A stretch of DNA of 64,000 nt from an uncultured Thermoplasmata archaeon (GTDB lineage: Archaea; Thermoplasmatota; Thermoplasmata; UBA10834), in contig CAVRDX010000003.1 of assembly GCA_963719945.1 (NCBI GenBank), forward strand, positions 1-64,000, in the 5' to 3' direction. Shown here piece by piece: positions 13,232 to 50,091 of the stretch; position 1 is the stretch's first letter; every line of letters starts with the position of its first letter. Under the pieces are notes generated by a model. It was not told where the DNA came from. It saw only the letters and a program-made list of their open reading frames with translations, and ran no database searches. The translations under genes were made by a program, and so were the position numbers.

Positions 13232-13268
13232 GTCGCCTAGGCTGAGGGAACGCCGTGATGATCTGAAG

Positions 13269-13443
13269 TGGGGGCAGAGGGATTTGAACCCCCATCAACG
13301 GGTTTCCACCACGCGGAGAGCGACTCCGGGTGTTACGGACATCATGGGTCATCGCTCCAGTTACTCATCACTGGTCAGCAAACCCAATGGAAATCATTCC
13401 CATAACTGGAGCCCGTAAGGATACCAGGTTACCCCATACCCCC
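13269..13443 (-). tRNA. tRNA-Trp(CCA) with a 102-nt intron at 37/38
   Basis: Acceptor GGGGGTA/TGCCCCC-A; anticodon stem ACGGG/CCCGT with CT-CCA-G|A; T arm GGGGGTTCAAATCCCTC; intron 13304-13405. Confidence 0.96.
13304..13405 (-). ncRNA. Intron-encoded box C/D guide sRNA targeting C34 and C39 of tRNA-Trp
   Basis: C-like AATGATT, D' CTGA, C' GTGATGA, D ATGA. Guides GGGTTTG and TAACTGGAGCG are complementary to the tRNA, with the fifth nucleotide opposite C39 and C34. Confidence 0.9.
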
Positions 13444-40726: not shown

Positions 40727-41473
40727 CTATGTGCTGAACTCCCTGAAAAGGGTGCATCTTGCCCTTCCATCGCTGATATTCTGTTTATAATCCGAGCACA
40801 TATGACAGAACGGACAGTTGTCTGTGCAGTCCATTTCTGTGATGTCCTGACCAACCTCATCATGTGTATCCTTCCAGGGTTGGGTGGCCATCATCGTCCC
40901 ATGGCTAGTAGGAATCTTGGCACAGACAATGGAGCGTTCGATATGCGCAGATTCGATGGCCTTCGTGGCTTCCGGAGAAGTCTCCAGGCCTGTAACGAGG
41001 ACCTTGCCAATATGCACGCCCATGGCTCTGATCTCTCTTTCGTGTCTCATCCTGACCTGAACAGCCCGAGAAAGGTTCGGTCCGCTCACAAGCACATCTT
41101 CGATGGGCATCGTCCTGATCTCATCCCGGATCAGGTCGGCCATGATGCACCGGATCCGATTTCTGATACTGTTCATCGAATCGGATCTGTGCTTTCCAGT
41201 GTATGGATCCAGCTCGAAGTCGAATGCCGAGGCAGCCATTCTCGGATATGCTATCCTGAAGATGACGTCGACATCTGCGCTGACAGGTTGCATGTCCTTC
41301 GATCGCGCCTTGGCTTTCGTTCTGATATCTGAAGATTTGATCGGGACGGATATCAAGTTCGTGAACCTTGGAAGATAATGAAAATCCATTCCCCTTCCCT
41401 CGTTCACGAGCTTCCCCTTGACAAATCTCATGGTGTGGCTTGCGCTATCTGCCTTGTGATGTCTCAATATCAT
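40727..41473 (-). CDS. SPFH/band-7-like protein with a Cys-rich C-terminal tail
   Basis: N-terminus resembles SPFH proteins (GKLVNEGRG..F.Y.P); ADVDVIFRI; SD GAGGGG; tail CTDNCPFCHMC...C. Confidence 0.6.
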   Translation of the reverse strand: MILRHHKADSASHTMRFVKGKLVNEGRGMDFHYLPRFTNLISVPIKSSDIRTKAKARSKDMQPVSADVDVIFRIAYPRMAASAFDFELDPYTGKHRSDSMNSIRNRIRCIMADLIRDEIRTMPIEDVLVSGPNLSRAVQVRMRHEREIRAMGVHIGKVLVTGLETSPEATKAIESAHIERSIVCAKIPTSHGTMMATQPWKDTHDEVGQDITEMDCTDNCPFCHMCSDYKQNISDGRARCTLFREFST

Positions 41474-41621
41474 GAGAATCCCCTCGTCTGGAATGCGGAT
41501 TCATGATACTGGCTATGATATTGTGCTTGATCACTGGCCGAGACTGTGCCGCAGGGATCAACCTGCAGGTTTGCTTGCGAATGCCTAGCTTCACTCACGG
41601 TGAAGACCCCTCCCCCGAAAT

Positions 41622-41686
41622 GGGCCACGACTCGGAAAGTCACGGCACTCAATAGTACGGTCAGTCCGCTCTTTGAGTCCTGGCCC
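41622..41686 (-). ncRNA. Candidate structured RNA element upstream of the SPFH gene
   Basis: GGGCCA-G-GACTC/GAGTC-G-TGGCCC closing stem with inner hairpins; begins about 25 nt downstream of TTTTAAG (41711-41717). Confidence 0.35.
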
Positions 41687-41830
41687 GCCACCAATATCTG
41701 TAAACTGACCCTTAAAACTTGGTGAAGCTGACCTGCAACCTTGTTCCCCTTCCGGAGCTCTCATTCTGATATGTACAAATCTGAGCATTTATCTGCATAT
41801 TGTTGGTCAATAATGGGCAATACTATACTA

Positions 41831-41845
41831 CAAGGATATTAATAA
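41831..41845 (+). promoter_or_regulatory. BRE/TATA promoter of the trp operon
   Basis: CAAGGA followed by TATTAATAA. Standard spacing predicts a TSS near 41868-41870, at the ATG. Confidence 0.65.
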
Positions 41846-41869
41846 TACATCAAACATCACATAATTGCG

Positions 41870-41935
41870 ATGGCACACAGGGGAGATTTATTTTGGCGTA
41901 TCGAACGCAGACACTCAGCCTTCGCCAGTATCTGA
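41870..41935 (+). CDS. Leaderless Trp-containing leader ORF MAHRGDLFWRIERRHSAFASI (candidate zero frame of trpE)
   Basis: ATG at the predicted TSS; TTT-TGG at 41891-41896; TGA 41933-41935. Confidence 0.55.
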   Translation: MAHRGDLFWRIERRHSAFASI

Positions 41936-43322
41936 TTCTCACTTGACGACGAGTCTGTCAATCGAGAAAGAGTGCAGCCTGGATGCAATATCTGTATTCT
42001 CATCCCTAAGGTCGAGCTTTGCTGGCGAGTGTTTCCTGCTCGAGTCAGTGGAAGGTACGCGGAAGAACGCGCGCTACTCGTTTGTAGGGGTGGGTCAGGT
42101 ATCTCAGTTCAAATCGATAGGCAACAAGATCGAGATAGGGGGCCAGGCTGCGACGGTCCCCGATCCCTATGGCGCGCTCCGATCCTATTTTAAATCGCTT
42201 AGATCAGGGGCATCTGAGGTCGCGCCTTTCTCTGGGGGGATGGTCGGCTACCTCGGATATGGAATGGTCAACCAATTCGACGGCATCCCGATGCCTCCCA
42301 CAGACGGCGAATCCCTGCCCGATATGCATTTCATGGTTCCAGAGCACCTGGTCTGTCTCGATCACCTCAATTCACGAACATTCCTCGTATCTCATGGAAA
42401 AATGGCTGACCTCAAGGAAGCACTTTCGAAGGCTCGCCCGGCGCCTCCTTCCGATTTGAAGATAACTGCCGGAAGATCCTCGGTGAACCAGGCAGAATTT
42501 GAGAAGATGGTCTCGACCGCAAAGGATGAGATTCTTGATGGGGAGATCTTTCAAGTAGTCCTTTCCCGCAGCACAGATTTCACCGTGGATGGCGACCCTC
42601 TTGAGATGTATCGAACACTCCGCGCCCTCAACCCTTCACCGTACATGTTCTATCTTGATTTCGGGAAGGTGAAGCTGCTGGGCTCCTCGCCAGAGATGTT
42701 GGTCAGGCTCGAGGGGAACAGATTGACCACCCGTCCTCTGGCAGGCACCAGGCCTAGATCTCCTGACATCGAGGATGATGAGAAGCTAAAGAACGAGCTC
42801 CTCCTCGATGAGAAGGAGCGGGCGGAGCACTTGATGCTGGTCGATCTTCATCGGAACGATATGGGACGAGTGTCCAAGTATGGTACTGTGAAAGTGACTG
42901 AGCTGATGGAGATCGAGAAGTACTCTCATGTTCAACACATCGTCAGCAACGTGGAGAGCGAGATACGGCCGGATGCTGATGGCTTCTCTGCGCTTCGTTC
43001 TTGTTTCCCAGCAGGTACCGTTACTGGCGCCCCAAAGATCAGAGCCATGGAGATAATATCTGCTCTGGAAGGTTCGCACAGAGGACTCTATGCCGGAACC
43101 GTCGGTTACTTCGATTTCACAGGTAACATGGACTTTGCCATCACCATCCGTTCAATAGTGGTCAACGGGAACCGTGCGAGACTCCAGGCAGGTGCTGGGA
43201 TAGTGGCCGATTCCGTGCCGGATCGAGAGTTCTCAGAGACCGAGCACAAGATGGGTGCCACACTGGAAGCTATCGAATCAGGGGACCCGAGGAGGGAAGG
43301 TCATGCGCATCTTACTCGTTGA
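41870..43322 (+). CDS. trpE: Anthranilate synthase component I (start unresolved: ATG 41870 via +1 shift, or TTG 41943)
   Basis: FLLESVEG, GEIFQVVLS, NPSPYMFY, SSPEML, PLAGT, EHLMLVDL, FPAGTVTGAPK. Confidence 0.95.
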
Positions 43323-43875
43323 CAATTATGATTCATTCGTCTACAACATCGCGCAATACCTGGGCGAGATCGGTGTCGATATTGAGGTGGAGAGGAACGA
43401 TTCAGGACGCATCGATGAGTTGGTTGATATCGTGGATGGGTTCGTGATTTCGCCAGGCCCTGGCCATCCAAGATCCGCCAGAAAGAGTCTCGATATTCTG
43501 AATCAGGGTGGATTCGGAAAACCGATACTCGGTGTCTGTCTCGGTCATCAGGCAATCGCGCATGTGCATGGTGGGTCGGTCGTTCGCGCGGACCAGGTAA
43601 TGCACGGCAAGGTCAGCAGGATAACGCATACGGAAGACCCACTTTTCGAGGGAATACCTCCATCGTTCACTGCGACCAGATATCATTCTCTATTGGTCGA
43701 TAGAGCAACTATTCCAGACTCCCTGGCGATCCTGGCTGAGACAGATCGGGGGGAGATCATGAGCCTAAGGGTGAAGGGGAAACCGATCTTTGGAGTTCAA
43801 TTCCATCCGGAATCCATAATGACCTCACACGGGAAGCGCCTGCTCCATAACTTCGCAAGGATGTGCGAACGATGA
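43303..43875 (+). CDS. trpG: Anthranilate synthase component II
   Basis: DNYDSF, SPGPG, GVCLGHQ, RYHSL, QFHPES. Confidence 0.95.
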   Translation: MRILLVDNYDSFVYNIAQYLGEIGVDIEVERNDSGRIDELVDIVDGFVISPGPGHPRSARKSLDILNQGGFGKPILGVCLGHQAIAHVHGGSVVRADQVMHGKVSRITHTEDPLFEGIPPSFTATRYHSLLVDRATIPDSLAILAETDRGEIMSLRVKGKPIFGVQFHPESIMTSHGKRLLHNFARMCER

Positions 43876-45833
43876 TACAGCAGGCGATTCGGGAAGTCAT
43901 CGACGGCAAAGACTTGGGTGCAGATGTGGCACAACAAGTGATGCGCGAGATGATGAGCGGTACTTCTACCTCGAGTCAGATCGCAGCCTTCGCGACCGCT
44001 ATGCGGATGAAGGGCGAAACTCAGGAAGAGCTACTGGGCTTCGCAAAGGCCATGCGAGAAAGTGCAACCCCTGTTTCATGTCCTCCGAATGCTGTCGATC
44101 TCTGCGGTACAGGAGGGGATGGGTGTAGCACATTCAACATCAGCACCGTCTCTTCGTTCGTCGTTGCTGCCGCTGGAGTCCCAGTCGCCAAGCACGGCAA
44201 CCGTGCCGTCTCAAGCAGGTCTGGCTCGGCGGATCTACTGGTTGCCCTCGGCATCCCAGTCGACCTCGGTCCTGATCTGGTTGAGAAATGTGTGGAAAAG
44301 GTCGGGATCGGCTTCATGTTCGCCCCGAGATTCCACGAAGCGATGAGAAACGTCGCTGCCACTAGACGGGAGATTGGGTTCAGGACATTCTTCAACATCC
44401 TGGGCCCAATCTCCAATCCCGCCAGCGTAAGGCACCAGCTGATGGGTATCTACGATCCCGAACTCGCCACGAAGGTTACAGGAGTCCTCCGAGATCTCGG
44501 GACCAAGAGAGCGCTTGTGGTCCACGGGAATGGGTTGGATGAAATCACGGATACTGGTCCGACCAGTGTCGTTGAATTGAGTTTGGGCAGAATCAATCGA
44601 TATGAGATCACACCAGAATCGTTCGGGTTCGAAGTCAATGATCCTTCCACCCATGTCGGTGGGAGTCCAGAAGAGAATGCAAGGATTGCTCTTTCCATTT
44701 TGAAGAATAGAGATCATATGAGGTCTCCAATCGTCGCGATGAATGCCGGAGCTGCTCTCTACGTGTCCGGTCACTCATCGACTATCGAGGACGGGGTCGA
44801 GACTGCCAAGAAAATGATTCACAATGGCCACGCGCTGAAGAAATTGGTGGAATTCTCATCTCTCGCAAATGAACTCGAGAAGAATCGTCAGATGTCGGAA
44901 GATGCATCCAACCTCCGAGAGTCCCGGATACATCCTGATGTTCTAAGGTCGAGATGCTCCGACCTGACTGCCGATATGCTATCGATGATAAGTGAGACCG
45001 ATCAAGGCGATGACATCCTAAGCACGCTCGATCAAGCATTATTCACCGCTCCTAATGTCCTCTCCGTCATAGTCGCTCGTCGAATTTTGAGCCTATCCCA
45101 GAGGTCGGGCATCGAAGGTGTCCAGCTTCCTCGTTCGAAGACTAGGATGTCCGAATCGATATCTTCGGAGGGTGGGATATCGCTGATAGCCGAATACAAA
45201 CCGCGATCACCTTCGACCCCACCACTAAGGGTCCCCCCGAATCCGTCCTCTGCTGCTCGAATACTGGATGAATCAGGATCCTCAGGGGTATCTGTTCTAG
45301 TTGAACCGGACTTCTTCGGCGGTGGGGAAGACCTGTTCGCAAGTTTCCGTTCGATAGTGTCCAAGCCCATGCTGTTCAAAGATTTTGTCGTGACCGAAGA
45401 CCAAGTCAGAATCGCCAGATCGCTTGGGGCCGATGCGATACTCCTGATCGCAAAAGCGCTTACTAGCCAATCTTTGGATGGGCTCATCAAGGCATGTATA
45501 TCAAATGGAGTCGAGCCTCTCGTCGAGACGCATGATTCCGAAGATATCGCTAAACTGTCCTCATGTCGATGCATGGATGCGGTGGACATGATTGGGATAA
45601 ACAGCAGGGATCTACGAACCCTCGATGTTGATCTTGCACAAGTGAACGAGTTGAGAAAACAGGCTCCACCAGGGAAGATACTCATTGCCGAGAGCGGACT
45701 CCGCTCTCCTGCAGATCTTCGCATGCTCCGAGGATTCGACGCGGTTTTGATGGGCTCCACCCTGATGGATTCAGATGATCTCCAAGTCATGCTGAGTGAT
45801 ATGGTATCCGTCGGGCGGAGCGTGGTCCGTTGA
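43872..45833 (+). CDS. trpD-trpC: Fused anthranilate phosphoribosyltransferase / indole-3-glycerol-phosphate synthase
   Basis: TrpD motifs DLCGTGGDG, FNIST, KHGNRAVSS, GLDE; TrpC motifs IAEYKPRSPS, KDF, GINSRDL, AESG; all in one frame. Confidence 0.93.
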   Translation: MIQQAIREVIDGKDLGADVAQQVMREMMSGTSTSSQIAAFATAMRMKGETQEELLGFAKAMRESATPVSCPPNAVDLCGTGGDGCSTFNISTVSSFVVAAAGVPVAKHGNRAVSSRSGSADLLVALGIPVDLGPDLVEKCVEKVGIGFMFAPRFHEAMRNVAATRREIGFRTFFNILGPISNPASVRHQLMGIYDPELATKVTGVLRDLGTKRALVVHGNGLDEITDTGPTSVVELSLGRINRYEITPESFGFEVNDPSTHVGGSPEENARIALSILKNRDHMRSPIVAMNAGAALYVSGHSSTIEDGVETAKKMIHNGHALKKLVEFSSLANELEKNRQMSEDASNLRESRIHPDVLRSRCSDLTADMLSMISETDQGDDILSTLDQALFTAPNVLSVIVARRILSLSQRSGIEGVQLPRSKTRMSESISSEGGISLIAEYKPRSPSTPPLRVPPNPSSAARILDESGSSGVSVLVEPDFFGGGEDLFASFRSIVSKPMLFKDFVVTEDQVRIARSLGADAILLIAKALTSQSLDGLIKACISNGVEPLVETHDSEDIAKLSSCRCMDAVDMIGINSRDLRTLDVDLAQVNELRKQAPPGKILIAESGLRSPADLRMLRGFDAVLMGSTLMDSDDLQVMLSDMVSVGRSVVR

Positions 45834-46417
45834 AGATCAAGATATGCGGGATCACCAATCTGTCCGATGCCGCAATGTGCGAGGAACTTGGAGCGGACAT
45901 GCTCGGTTTCGTCCATGTAGATGGCCGGGCCAGAAGCGTGACACCCGAGGCGATCTCCGAGATTGGATCTTGCCTCGGACAAGGTCTGACCAAGATTCTC
46001 GTATGCTATCCACAGTCCGCATCAGATGCAATCGATCTTGGTAGAAAGAGTGATGTGGATGCTATCCAATTGCATACTCTCTCTCCGGATGATATGAGCG
46101 ATATACGCGATGCAGGGTTCATGGTGATAAGGGCCGTGAAGGCTGATCGTTCCACCGCCCTTCCGTTCTCCGAAGCGGTCGATGCGCTTCTATTCGAGAA
46201 TGGGCTTCCGGGCACGGGAAGCGCATACGACTACAGTTCCGTTCCCATGGATTGTCACCCTAGAACGATTATTGCGGGCGGACTCAGACCAGCGAATGTC
46301 CATCTGGCCAAAGCAATGAATCCATATGCAGTGGATGTTTCGTCTGGAGTTGAGCGGATCATCGGTGCGAAGGATAGGGGACTATTGTCTGAATTCATCA
46401 GGAGATGCAGGGAATGA
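45830..46417 (+). CDS. trpF: Phosphoribosylanthranilate isomerase
   Basis: KICGIT, IQLH, AGGL, DVSSGVE. Confidence 0.95.
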
Positions 46418-47592
46418 ACAAGAATGGTTACTTTGGAGATTTCGGCGGGTTCTTCGTTCCAGAGATACTTGTCAGCGCATTGAAGGAGCTAGAGCGAGAA
46501 TATCAATCATTGTCAACTGATACAGAGTTCGCCGATGAACTGAATCATCTCCTTGAGACATATGCAGGCAGGCCTACCCCGTTGTTCTCCGCAAAGAACC
46601 TGTCGAAAGAATGCGGGGGCGCGAAGATATATCTCAAGCGCGAGGACCTATTGCATACAGGATCCCACAAGATCAACAATGCGCTCGGTCAGGCGTTGCT
46701 GGCGAAGCGGATCGGAAAGACTCGCATCATCGCAGAGACAGGCGCTGGTCAGCACGGAGTGGCCACCGCGACTGCATGTGCGCTTCTAGGTCTGAGATGC
46801 GAGATATTCATGGGCGAAGTGGATGTCGAGAGGCAGAGTTCCAATTGTTATCGGATGAATCTGTTGGGTGCGAAGTTGAACGTGGTCAGGGGCGGTTCGC
46901 GCACCCTCAAGGACGCCATCAACGAAGCCATGCGGGACTATGCAGCGACGAGTGAGGATACGCACTATCTCATCGGAAGCGTCGTCGGCCCCCACCCGTA
47001 TCCGACGATGGTCAGAGATTTCCAGTCTGTCATTGGTCGAGAGGCTAGGTCTCAGATACTGTCGATTGATGGTAGACTGCCTGACGCACTTGTAGCCTGC
47101 GTCGGCGGAGGCAGTAATTCCATAGGGCTCTTCCATCCTTTTGTGGCCGATGCCTCCGTCCGCATGTTCGGGGTTGAGGCAGGTGGGAAAGGGATCGATT
47201 CAGATATGCACTCCGCAAGTGTTGTCAGGGGAACGGAAGGCGTTCTTCATGGAGCCAAGAGTCTGGTTCTTCAGGATGAAGATGGACAGATAAATGAAAC
47301 GCATTCTGTTGCAGCGGGACTCGATTATCCTGCAGTCGGCCCTGAGCACGCATTCTTCAGCAGGTCGAAGCGGATCGAGTATAGCGCGATAAACGATGAC
47401 GAAGCGGTGTCAGCTTTTCATCATCTGTCGGAATCGGAAGGAATCGTTCCAGCATTGGAGAGCGCACATGCGATCTCCTTCGCATCAAAGTTGGCCAGCG
47501 ATATGAGCCCAGGGCAATCGATCATCGTATGTCTCTCTGGACGCGGTGATAAGGATGTCAATCAGATAGCTGCAATGGAGGGGAAATTGTGA
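46414..47592 (+). CDS. trpB: Tryptophan synthase beta chain (TrpB1)
   Basis: [41 protein letters not shown]. Confidence 0.97.
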
Positions 47593-48398
47593 GCAGACTT
47601 GCCGATGCGTTCTCATCACTCGAACATCAGGGGTCGTGTGCCTACATCCCGTACATATGTGCTGGCGATCCCGACTTGAAATTCACCGCTGAATTGGTGA
47701 GGACTCTCGATAAGAATGGAGCCGACATCTTCGAGATCGGTCTTCCCTTCTCCGATCCAATCGCAGATGGCCCGGTCATTCAGGCTGCGATGAAGCGATC
47801 ATTGGTTGCCGGATTCCGAACAGAGAAGGTCTTCGAGCTAATATCCGACTTGAGGAAGTCCTCTGTGTCAAAGCCAATCGTCGTAATGAGCTATTTCAAT
47901 CCGATCTTCAAGTACGGTGTGAAGCGATTCTGCGAGAACCTATCATCTTCTGGCGGTGACGCATTATTAGTGGTGGATCTGCCACCTGAAGAATCCCAAT
48001 GTCTCCGAAACCATTGTCGAGACACTGGCCTTGACATAATCAGACTGGTTACCCCTACGACTGAAGAGTCCCGTCTGGACTACCTTTTGTCTGATGCGTC
48101 CGGTTATGTCTATGCCGTATCAGTCGCCGGAACGACTGGTCAGAGGGACAATGTCCACAGCAATGTGCCTTCACTGATACAGAAGATAAGGGGTAAGACA
48201 AGTCTGCCTATCGCCATTGGTTTTGGGATATCCTGCCCTGAGCATGTACGGTCGGCAGTATCGATGGGATCGTCAGGAGTCATCGAGGGATCTCAACTCA
48301 TCTCGATTTATTCCGCGAATTTAGATGACAGAAATCATGCACTCATCAATGTTGCAGAGCATGCTAGGTCCATGAAATCCTCCACGGGAACTGAGTAG
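47589..48398 (+). CDS. trpA: Tryptophan synthase alpha chain
   Basis: [35 protein letters not shown]. Confidence 0.96.
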
Positions 48399-48421: not shown

Positions 48422-49828
48422 TCACGCCTCGTTGAATCTGAATTTGCCATCGGGGACAAGAATCTCGAATCTCGCGTTAACGCCAAACTTGCCGTTCTCG
48501 GAAATGGTGATGCCAGTGATTCCAAGAATCTCCCTGATTAAGAACAATCCCATCCCTGTATTACGTCCATGGCCAGCTTCGAATATCTTCGTTTTCTCAT
48601 CGTCGGGGACTCCCTGACCATCATCTTCAATTATCAATACCAAGCCGTCCCCCCGCATCTCGGTCCCGAACCTGGTCTCGGTCACGCGGCCCCCATGCCT
48701 TTTGGCATTGTCAATCAGATTCCAGATCACCTTCTCGAACATAGGATCTGCGAACAGTTCGAGGGTTCGTACCTGATGGGGGATGATCACATTGGTGAAA
48801 TCAAAAGCGGTGGTCGCAGTCTTGATCGCAGTGAACACATTGGTCCAGCCCGGATTGCTCGTTCCCGCCTTCTGATAGTCTGCGGCGAACCTCAGTTGGA
48901 CATTTATGGCGCTCAATGATTCCTGCGCCTTCTTCATAAAATTCTTCTTCGAGTCTTCGCCAGAATCTCCTTCCAACAATTGGATGTAATTGGAGACGGC
49001 TGTGATTCGGTTGGCAATATCATGCCTCGTTATGGAACCCAAGAGACTGAGCTTTGCGTTGGCCCTCATCAACTCGTTCTCCATCATCTTCCTGTCTGTG
49101 ATGTCTCGGATGATTGTGAGCACGCGGGTCTCACCATCAATCTCTATGAGTCTTGCGTTTATCTCCGAGTATATGGTCCTGCCTTCAGGCGTAATGCCGA
49201 CGCTCTCTGCTATGAGCTTTCCTTCTTTCAGCAGAACAGCCATTCTATCTTTGAACCCTGTCGCCGACTCTGGTGTATTCATATCCAAAGGAGTCTTGTG
49301 GAGCAATTCATCTCGGCTCATCCCATATCTCTCACACATGGTCTTGTTTACTTCGATGAATCTTCCATTCACTTCATGGATGGCGATTCCATCTCCCGCA
49401 CTCTCGAACAGCGCCCTATACTTTGCCTCAGACGATCTGAGTGCCGTTTCGATTCGTTTGTAATCAGTGATGTCCCTTGCCACTGCGAGGATGGCGGGCT
49501 CATCAATGTAAGGGAATCTCGATAGCTTGATGTCTACTGGGAAGCTCGAACCATCCTTCCTGATGTGGGTGACTTCGAATCGTTCCTCTCCCTTTGAGAG
49601 TAATCGGTCGGTCCTTTCTCGAACCTTTGATGATGAACTTGGGTCAGTGATGTCCCTTGGTCCGAGCTCAAGCAATTCATCGCTGGTGTATCCCAGACTG
49701 GCGCAAGCTTCCCTGTTCACGACGAGGAATTTGCCACCTGGCCGATGGATGAATATCGAGTCACCTGCGCTATCGAGCAGGCGTCTATAGATTTCATCCA
49801 TTCGGCCATTAGAATCTGTCTGGACCAT
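48422..49828 (-). CDS. Cytoplasmic PAS-PAS sensor histidine kinase
   Basis: Two PAS/PAC domains, RHDIAN H box, NLIDNA, DDGQG, TGMGL. Start uncertain (up to 49912). Confidence 0.92.
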   Translation of the reverse strand: MVQTDSNGRMDEIYRRLLDSAGDSIFIHRPGGKFLVVNREACASLGYTSDELLELGPRDITDPSSSSKVRERTDRLLSKGEERFEVTHIRKDGSSFPVDIKLSRFPYIDEPAILAVARDITDYKRIETALRSSEAKYRALFESAGDGIAIHEVNGRFIEVNKTMCERYGMSRDELLHKTPLDMNTPESATGFKDRMAVLLKEGKLIAESVGITPEGRTIYSEINARLIEIDGETRVLTIIRDITDRKMMENELMRANAKLSLLGSITRHDIANRITAVSNYIQLLEGDSGEDSKKNFMKKAQESLSAINVQLRFAADYQKAGTSNPGWTNVFTAIKTATTAFDFTNVIIPHQVRTLELFADPMFEKVIWNLIDNAKRHGGRVTETRFGTEMRGDGLVLIIEDDGQGVPDDEKTKIFEAGHGRNTGMGLFLIREILGITGITISENGKFGVNARFEILVPDGKFRFNEA

Positions 49829-50091
49829 CTCACTCAACCGCAATACGGTGCATATTGCCTCGCAGAGTATTATAATATTCGACGACCGATTATTAATGTC
49901 TCGGATCATCACTGTCGACGAATCAACAAATCAATTGCGTTATCCTCTTCTCTGGTTGGTTATTGGATATTCATCATCCGCTCCAAATCTACTTATTCTT
50001 TTGATATCACCTGACTATAAATACTGGTTGATGTTGGAGAATCGCAAGCATAATGTAACAATTCACCTGTTACTGGATGGGGGAGAGGATT

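Follow-up and report, generated by a model that had tools for sequence, protein, structure and literature searches.

The trpE locus and its two reading frames

The window analysed here is a stretch of 64,000 nucleotides (nt) of an uncultured Thermoplasmata archaeon (assembly GCA_963719945.1, contig CAVRDX010000003.1, positions 1–64,000). It contains a tryptophan (Trp) biosynthesis operon in which the first gene, trpE, is preceded by the start codon of a short open reading frame (ORF) located in another frame. Codons 8 and 9 of this leader ORF (hereafter the 0 frame) are TTT (41891–41893) and TGG (41894–41896), and the latter is its sole Trp codon. The +1 frame encodes a complete TrpE, namely anthranilate synthase component I with the Pfam domains Anth_synt_I_N and Chorismate_bind. 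A preliminary description, made from the sequence alone, had reported an out-of-frame ATG at 41870, a leader of 21 codons, a lone TGG after TTT and trpE at +1, and all of this was confirmed. If trpE is expressed through a change of frame at TTT-TGG, the predicted product consists of 8 leader residues and 476 further residues with the junction ...GDLF/GVSNADTQ... (peptide MAHRGDLF-GVSNADTQPSPVSDSH). The features of the locus are listed in Table 1.

Table 1. Coordinates of the trpE leader, the trp operon and associated elements in the window (SD, Shine–Dalgarno).
Feature	Position	Strand	Comment
TGTACA box upstream of the promoter	41772–41777	+	possible operator of a TrpY-like repressor (putative function)
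TATA-like TATTAATAA (41837–41845), then conserved TAATACAT up to 41850	41837–41850	+	TAGTACAT in relatives
In-frame TTG of the trpE frame	41865–41867	+	5 bases before ATG 41870; probably not used
0-frame leader ORF, 21 codons, MAHRGDLFW..., reads MAHRGDLFWRIERRHSAFASI	41870–41935	+	stop TGA 41933–41935
SD-like purine block AGGGGAGAT (consensus AGRRGGGAT)	41879–41887	+	3 nt between block end and slip codon
Shift site TTT-TGG	41891–41896	+	P-site TTT can re-pair on TTT 41892–41894
trpE in the +1 frame, 476 codons and stop	41892–43322	+	TTT 41892–41894, GGC 41895–41897, open to 43322
TTG, internal Leu codon	41943–41945	+	CAT CTT in related strains, CAC TTG here (41940–41945)
trpG, ATG 43303	43303–43875	+	GGAGG 8 nt upstream; 20-nt overlap with trpE
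Fused trpD-trpC, one 656-codon ORF	43863–45833	+	Glycos_transf_3 and IGPS
trpF	45830–46417	+	overlapping operon gene
trpB	46405–47592	+	overlapping operon gene
trpA	47589–48398	+	overlapping operon gene
tRNA-Trp(CCA) gene with a 102-nt intron	13268–13443	-	ARAGORN; only tRNA-Trp detected in the genome

The preliminary description had left it open whether the run at 41891–41894 consists of four T or of three. The identical sequence GATTTATTTTGGCG, including the run of four T (T4), was found in G006 and G010, two independently assembled genomes of this genus (TrpE 94% identical). In addition, two further studies provided short-read contigs of related strains, and these cross 41860–41958 with no indel. 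Thus, the T4 run is real and the frame offset is not a sequencing error. An ATG located eight codons upstream, together with a short 0 frame and a 476-codon +1 frame, occurs once in the 1.78-Mb genome, and as relatives also have this arrangement (see below), it is not a chance occurrence. The shift-site motif has 26 loose matches in the genome, and only the one at trpE has a nearby ATG, a 0 frame that is short and a +1 frame that is long.

Conservation of the leader in related archaea

The 5' regions of trpE were compared using genomes from the genus, family, order and class of the window genome. NTT-TGG behind a start codon was found in 28 distinct leaders, and trpE is in the +1 frame in 26 of them, drawn from six families of the class (f1, f2, f6, f16, f33 and f35). 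Their common plan includes a start codon, the block AGRRGGGAT, three free bases, the codon CTT, TTT or (twice) GTT, then TGG and mostly C. The start codon is ATG, replaced by GTG in two leaders, and the distance from the start to TGG is 6–9 codons in the 28 distinct leaders. The ATG is usually followed by A, and a TGA stop of the trpE frame thereby overlaps the 0-frame ATG in most relatives. The five bases TT-TGG are invariant (26/26 non-redundant leaders). The codon preceding TGG, which would occupy the ribosomal P site, is CTT in 15 leaders, TTT in nine and GTT in two (n = 26), and no other Leu or Phe codon is used. The base after TGG, the putative A-site codon, is C in 17 cases, G in six, A in two and T in one (n = 26), which is a preference and not an invariant feature. 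The 0-frame stop is located 3 to 44 codons after TGG and the tail of the leader ORF is not conserved. Thus, an out-of-frame start followed by YTT-TGG with an open +1 frame is kept by relatives in six families. The geometry that had been likened to that of bacterial prfB is also present, namely a conserved SD-like block, 3 nt, CTTT or TTTT, and usually C after the A-site codon. In the leaders measured, the element TA(G/A)TACAT begins 24–28 nt upstream of the 0-frame start, and this constant spacing between the TATA box and ATG suggests that the mRNA is leaderless or nearly so.

In the genera g3 and g4 and in the genomes G044 and G050, the TATA box is as far from the start codon as elsewhere, the ATG is in frame with trpE, and neither the SD-like block nor the T run is present any longer. 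Leaders L114 (G050) and L116/L043 (G044) have this in-frame ATG inside genus g2, most members of which have the cassette. Loss of one base seems to have restored the frame in G050, which has TCT GGC GTG and not TTT TGG CGT G like its relatives.

The information content of the alignment columns is 2 bits at TT-TGG and 0.6–2.0 bits across AGRRGGGAT, and it is low between these elements and downstream of them. The leader columns do not have three-base periodicity, and the constraint therefore appears to act on the RNA and not on the peptide. The slip codons are rare in the genome, where TTT accounts for 11% of Phe codons, CTT for 14% of Leu codons and TTA for 2%.

The 3' end of the 16S rRNA of the window genome is GGAUCACCUCCU, and the purine block of the window forms a duplex with it at -8.5 kcal/mol. 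The pairing of the 15 nt before the slip codon with the anti-SD sequence had a mean energy of -9.3 kcal/mol in the 28 leaders, while random genomic 15-mers, used as the background, gave -4.4 kcal/mol (standard deviation 2.4); the median of the leaders is at the 3.6th percentile of this background. Thus, the block proposed to be SD-like does pair with the anti-SD of the genome itself. GGAGG serves as a true SD at internal trp genes, so the anti-SD is functional in this organism. Genes for tRNA-Phe GAA and tRNA-Leu GAG were found in the genome, and re-pairing in the P site is possible both from UUU to UUU, as here, and from CUU to UUU, as in most relatives.

The relation between the two frames was then evaluated using the linker from TTT to the conserved LxTS of TrpE. 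Its length is 27, 39, 42, 45, 48, 51 or 57 nt, always a multiple of three (26/28 leaders). A separate downstream start would not impose such a register. Both frames are open in all sequences only over about 13 nt around TTT-TGG. In two leaders of family f16 (L120 and L123), the trpE frame reads ATT TAG TTT GGC with TAG directly before TTT, so no translation upstream of TTT is possible in this frame; in L112 (G043), the 0 frame stops three codons past TGG. In 9 of 26 leaders, the trpE frame is devoid of ATG, GTG and TTG from the upstream stop to LxTS. In three further leaders of the 26, the sole candidate start is the Leu TTG of LxTS, which is CTT in strains related to the window genome. The motif LxTSVSIE is conserved with synonymous variation (ACG/ACC/ACA and AGT/AGC), which indicates that it is translated. 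Both differences between CAT CTT and CAC TTG are also synonymous. Hence TTG 41943, which the preliminary description had considered as another possible start, is an internal Leu codon in a frame that is already translated at this point. Substitutions in the linker of four close pairs were most numerous at third codon positions (about 27 in total, versus 13 and 17). As the linker is weakly constrained, this is no more than mildly supportive.

Several other candidates were considered and rejected. One was a near-cognate start at the Ile codon (ATT) of an apparent GIYFG peptide. Some leaders have ACG or GTT instead of this codon, and in others a TAG cuts it off; the peptide seems conserved because the nucleotides GGGAT...TTTGG are conserved. 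Another candidate was a third frame, in which the SD-like block drives initiation at TTG 41893 (inside TTTTGG), with a stop at TGA 41944 and re-initiation at TTG 41943. It was rejected because neither this frame nor its stop is conserved and position 41943 is CTT in related strains. Transcriptional slippage requires longer runs than 3–4 nt of T, and the T runs found here, of only 3–4 nt, are too short for it.

A candidate frameshift sensing tryptophan and its alternatives

The characteristics described above allow us to assume that trpE is probably expressed by a programmed +1 frameshift of the prfB kind, in which a slow UGG takes the place of UGA and a low level of Trp-tRNA turns TrpE on. The mRNA would start at or just upstream of ATG 41870 and eight codons (MAHRGDLF) would be read. 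The tRNA-Phe would then be located on UUU in the P site with UGG in the A site, and AGGGGAGAU, separated from the P-site codon by only 3 nt, would pair with the 16S anti-SD. A shortage of Trp-tRNA would leave the A site empty long enough for the P-site tRNA to re-pair one base forward; in most relatives, this step would be made by tRNA-Leu GAG moving from CUU to UUU. GGC would be read next and the ribosome would thereby enter the 476-codon TrpE frame. If Trp-tRNA is ample, UGG would be decoded, translation would stop 12 codons later and TrpE would not be made. The sensed molecule would be the tRNA-Trp(CCA) whose gene is located in the window (Table 1). This gene was detected using ARAGORN with introns allowed and was missed without the intron option. 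A response to Trp is suggested by the A-site position of the only Trp codon, which is common to all leaders, by the presence of the cassette only on tryptophan genes, and by the precedent of prfB and of hungry-codon sites of the Ty1 type. The frameshift interpretation of the preliminary description is supported by these results. Its further proposal, that the overlapping genes could spread the control through the operon, is not required, as trpG has its own GGAGG and ATG 43303.

In order to find the cassette on other genes, the exact 16-mer AGGGATTTACTTTGGC was scanned across GTDB genomes. At least 120 matches were obtained, most of them chance bacterial ones, and the archaeal matches were informative. 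Among the matches listed, TrpE is located downstream of the 16-mer in 7 of 120 loci, and directly so in at least five. In two Micrarchaeota among these seven loci, the cassette is fused at +1 to TrpE and the domain starts 12 residues after the site. In the archaeon MEGAHIT-group-1.583 (JBDRIL010000020.1, L231:400–1751), the cassette follows GGAGGT-N7-ATG and reads MKNKKTNRRDLLW, with the codons AGA AGG GAT TTA CTT TGG CAG TAA. Its +1 frame encodes a TrpB-like pyridoxal phosphate (PLP) enzyme (TrpB2; NF009057, E 1.5e-194). The match to this family begins four residues past the shift site and a stop is located just upstream in the same frame. The canonical SD before the ATG indicates that the out-of-frame ATG is a real start there, so a second, unrelated tryptophan enzyme appears to depend on the same +1 switch.

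A genome-wide search for NTT-T sites before long ORFs without a start gave 71 matches. Eight of them were inspected (six chosen for having the strongest SD-like pairing, and the two in which TGG is the A-site codon), and these looked like ordinary genes with ordinary internal starts, or like chance matches. A sister cassette for another amino acid was not found among these 71 matches, eight of which were inspected. We are inclined, with some reserve, to regard start-AGRRGGGAT-NNN-YTT-UGG as a portable and ancient archaeal 'frameshift attenuator'. It would read the charging of tRNA-Trp at the A site, would have been set before tryptophan genes in more than one phylum (trpE in Thermoplasmata and Micrarchaeota, trpB2 in another archaeon) and upstream of tRNA-Trp in DPANN archaea, and would be the archaeal counterpart of bacterial leader-peptide attenuation. 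As a separate observation, the Candidatus Iainarchaeum metagenome-assembled genome (MAG) contains two copies of GAAGGGATTTACTTTGG about 75 nt apart (L207:5820–5915) upstream of a trpE gene, the N-terminal frame of which could not be placed.

A number of observations weigh against a Trp-sensing frameshift. The window genome itself has an in-frame TTG at 41865, leaders L007, L010 and L015–L019 have an in-frame ATG in the linker, and L006 and the Micrarchaeota leader L221 have an in-frame ATG just upstream of the motif. In two MAGs from Rifle (L033 and L037; RBG_13_57_23 and RBG_19FT_COMBO_56_21), the leader with CTT-TGG is kept, but trpE is located at +2. In both of them, TGA is met in the +1 frame and the TTG inside CTTTGG lies in the trpE frame. 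Their purine block AAGGGGGTG is the best SD of all (-14.7 and -13.0 kcal/mol). This is probably a derived state in which the stimulator turned into a true SD for a TTG start. A comparable arrangement, with TTTGGG and trpE in the TTG frame, appears to be present in L062, from the Nanopore MAG G019, the trpE of which is broken. Furthermore, in three DPANN contigs (L176, L192 and L211) the cassette precedes a tRNA gene by about 200 nt and has no enzyme fused to it. This gene is tRNA-Trp(CCA) in L176 (4260–4612) and L211, where the leader reads M..RRDLLW; in L211, the motif is about 190 nt upstream of the tRNA gene and on its strand. In L192, the tRNA was called Arg(CCG) with an intron, which is possibly a mis-call. 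The +1 ORF of L192 and L211 encodes a peptide of about 35 codons ending in ...LYAWRW, and trpE is located further downstream in L192. Judging from these three contigs, the leader may also act without fusion to an enzyme. The leader sequences are not independent of one another, given the relatedness of many of the genomes compared and a possible transfer of the trp operon between lineages. Finally, we know of no demonstration of SD-stimulated +1 frameshifting on archaeal ribosomes.

L033, L037 and L062, together with L006 and L221, indicate that a +1 fusion is not obligatory for the leader to be retained, and they are the main support for an alternative in which the short ORF is a regulatory leader peptide, i.e., an upstream ORF. 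TrpE would then be started separately, either from an ATG, GTG or TTG located downstream in its frame or from a non-canonical codon, and stalling at UGG would control this initiation or the fate of the mRNA with no frameshift involved. The in-frame ATG codons found in or upstream of some leaders and the unfused cassettes before tRNA genes are in agreement with this explanation. We nevertheless regard it as improbable. Nine of the 26 leaders do not have a canonical in-frame start and three more have only the internal Leu TTG. A separate start would not need linkers whose lengths are always multiples of three. As for the near-cognate ATT of GIYFG, L120 and L123 have a TAG between it and TTT, and in other leaders ACG or GTT takes its place. 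The homology of the L231 product to TrpB2 begins four residues past the shift site, with a stop just upstream. In addition, the position of the 0-frame stop is not conserved, and no alternative RNA structure was predicted: the fold of the leader and linker (41868–41990) was no better than that of shuffled sequences (z 0.14).

It can also be supposed that the +1 frameshift is real but constitutive, being a translational correction or a set-point, with UGG kept for efficiency and not for sensing. Everything that the frames and motifs show fits this explanation equally well. It is considered unlikely, since every leader has its only Trp codon in the A site and the cassette was found here on trpE, on trpB2 and upstream of a called tRNA-Trp (two contigs) and on no other gene of the window genome. 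A plain in-frame ATG can replace the cassette, and its retention in as many as six families is thus an argument that it does more than allow the protein to be made.

We consider it very unlikely that TrpE of the window genome starts at TTG 41865, at the 5' end of the mRNA, with the out-of-frame ATG being irrelevant; the N-terminus would then be M(L)RWHTGEIYFGV... and not MAHRGDLFGV.... This TTG, overlooked in the preliminary description, is in frame, open onward, located where the transcription start is expected and common to G006. In G010, a TGA follows two codons later and the TTG thus cannot be a conserved start. In most other relatives, a stop in the trpE frame overlaps the ATG. Moreover, leaderless initiation strongly prefers AUG, and a start at TTG would leave the conserved cassette unexplained. 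The last explanation, a homopolymer error with a true TTT and the ATG in frame, is refuted for practical purposes: it has in its favour only the prior that a genome in four contigs may be a long-read assembly, and it is opposed by the same T4 in two independent assemblies, by its presence without indels in the short-read contigs and by a +1 relation kept in 26 leaders of different sequence.

Relation to known systems and other features of the locus

The frameshift of prfB is characterized by AGGGGG-NNN-CUU-UGA-C, with a rare TTTT variant and C after the A-site codon, and prfB genes without the frameshift lose the SD-like block and the slippery run (PMC12421855). The trpE element is similar in that a purine-rich SD-like block is followed by 3 nt and by slippery CTTT or TTTT (the latter with tRNA-Phe, as in the prfB exceptions). 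The similarity also includes an A-site codon that starts with U and would be decoded slowly, a preferred C next to it, a 0-frame product that is short while the +1 frame encodes the real protein, and in-frame lineages devoid of both the block and the slippery run. In both cases, the supply of the reader of the A-site codon would be the sensed quantity. However, the A-site codon of trpE is the sense codon UGG (TGG in 26/26 leaders) and not an in-frame stop TGA, so the element works like prfB but is not a member of the prfB type, which has a stop in the A site. Accordingly, the sensed molecule would be Trp-tRNA and not a release factor, and the gene encodes a biosynthetic enzyme, with the loop closed via the end product of the pathway, in an archaeal host. 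Furthermore, the prfB site is located at codon 26, whereas that of trpE is only eight codons from a probably leaderless 5' end.

The yeast +1 frameshifts of Ty1, ABP140 and EST3 occur at CUU-AGG-C and involve a hungry sense codon. As is proposed for trpE leaders, tRNA-Leu slips on CUU in the P site while a sense codon in the A site is decoded slowly; C follows this codon, and G is the first base of the codon read in the +1 frame. In yeast, however, the slowness results from a constitutively rare tRNA and not from amino-acid supply, an SD-like stimulator is absent and the site is not a metabolic sensor.

The use of Trp codons in a leader ORF and of ribosome stalling to report tryptophan supply is shared with trp attenuation (trpL, Rfam Trp_leader) and TnaC. 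Unlike in trpL attenuation, the leader contains a single TGG and no tandem Trp codons. No terminator-like site was found on the plus strand after the leader, no terminator/antiterminator fold was revealed, and an Rfam search of 41300–42200 (E <= 1) gave no match. In addition, the leader ORF is not separate, the structural gene does not have its own start in 9–12 of 26 leaders, and the output would be a change of reading frame into the structural gene and not read-through of transcription.

TrpY is the repressor of the Methanothermobacter trpEGCFBAD operon, where it acts at TGTACA boxes, and it represents the known control of archaeal trp operons. It is mentioned in PMC6737238. GTACA/TGTACA repeats surround the TATA box of trpE in the window (41772–41777 and 41843–41850) and in L005, L006, L016 and L017, with a spacing of about 10–13 nt in some of the relatives. 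The number of GTACA boxes in relatives, at positions similar to that of the window TGTACA, is one to three. These boxes resemble the TRP boxes bound by Methanothermobacter TrpY and suggest an additional, TrpY-like layer of transcriptional control. Such control is transcriptional and protein-mediated, would be added to that at the shift site and does not explain the frame problem.

The adjustment of amino-acid biosynthesis to supply is poorly understood in archaea, and to our knowledge, only protein transcription regulators (TrpY and TK0271) have been described for archaeal tryptophan control. Searches of the full-text literature, the 2016 review by Atkins (PMC5009743) and the GeneTack survey (PMC3711429) revealed no frameshift in trpE or anthranilate synthase, in agreement with the earlier statement that no trp control of this kind had been described. 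The novelty would consist in an autoregulatory, prfB-like +1 frameshift with a sense codon as an amino-acid sensor. If this is true, it would be the first known case of a biosynthetic operon gated by a programmed frameshift at the codon of its own end product, and would unite the autoregulation of prfB with the attenuation of trp operons, both of them textbook ideas. Furthermore, it would add to the rare natural +1 frameshifts of archaeal cellular genes and provide evidence that frameshifting on ribosomes of archaea can be stimulated by SD/anti-SD pairing. In such lineages, gene callers will mis-start or truncate trpE, and conclusions on pathway completeness may be wrong for many MAGs. The cassette, 25 nt in length, could serve archaeal synthetic biology as a compact tryptophan-responsive switch.

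As for the surroundings of the leader, a scan for sigma-70-type promoters gave no match, as expected for an archaeon, and no Pfam family was found in the small ORFs upstream of trpE (41591–41788 on the minus strand and others). Introns of archaeal tRNA-Trp genes often encode a box C/D guide. A PAS-PAS histidine-kinase-like protein is encoded at 48422–49912 on the minus strand, convergent with the end of the trp operon.

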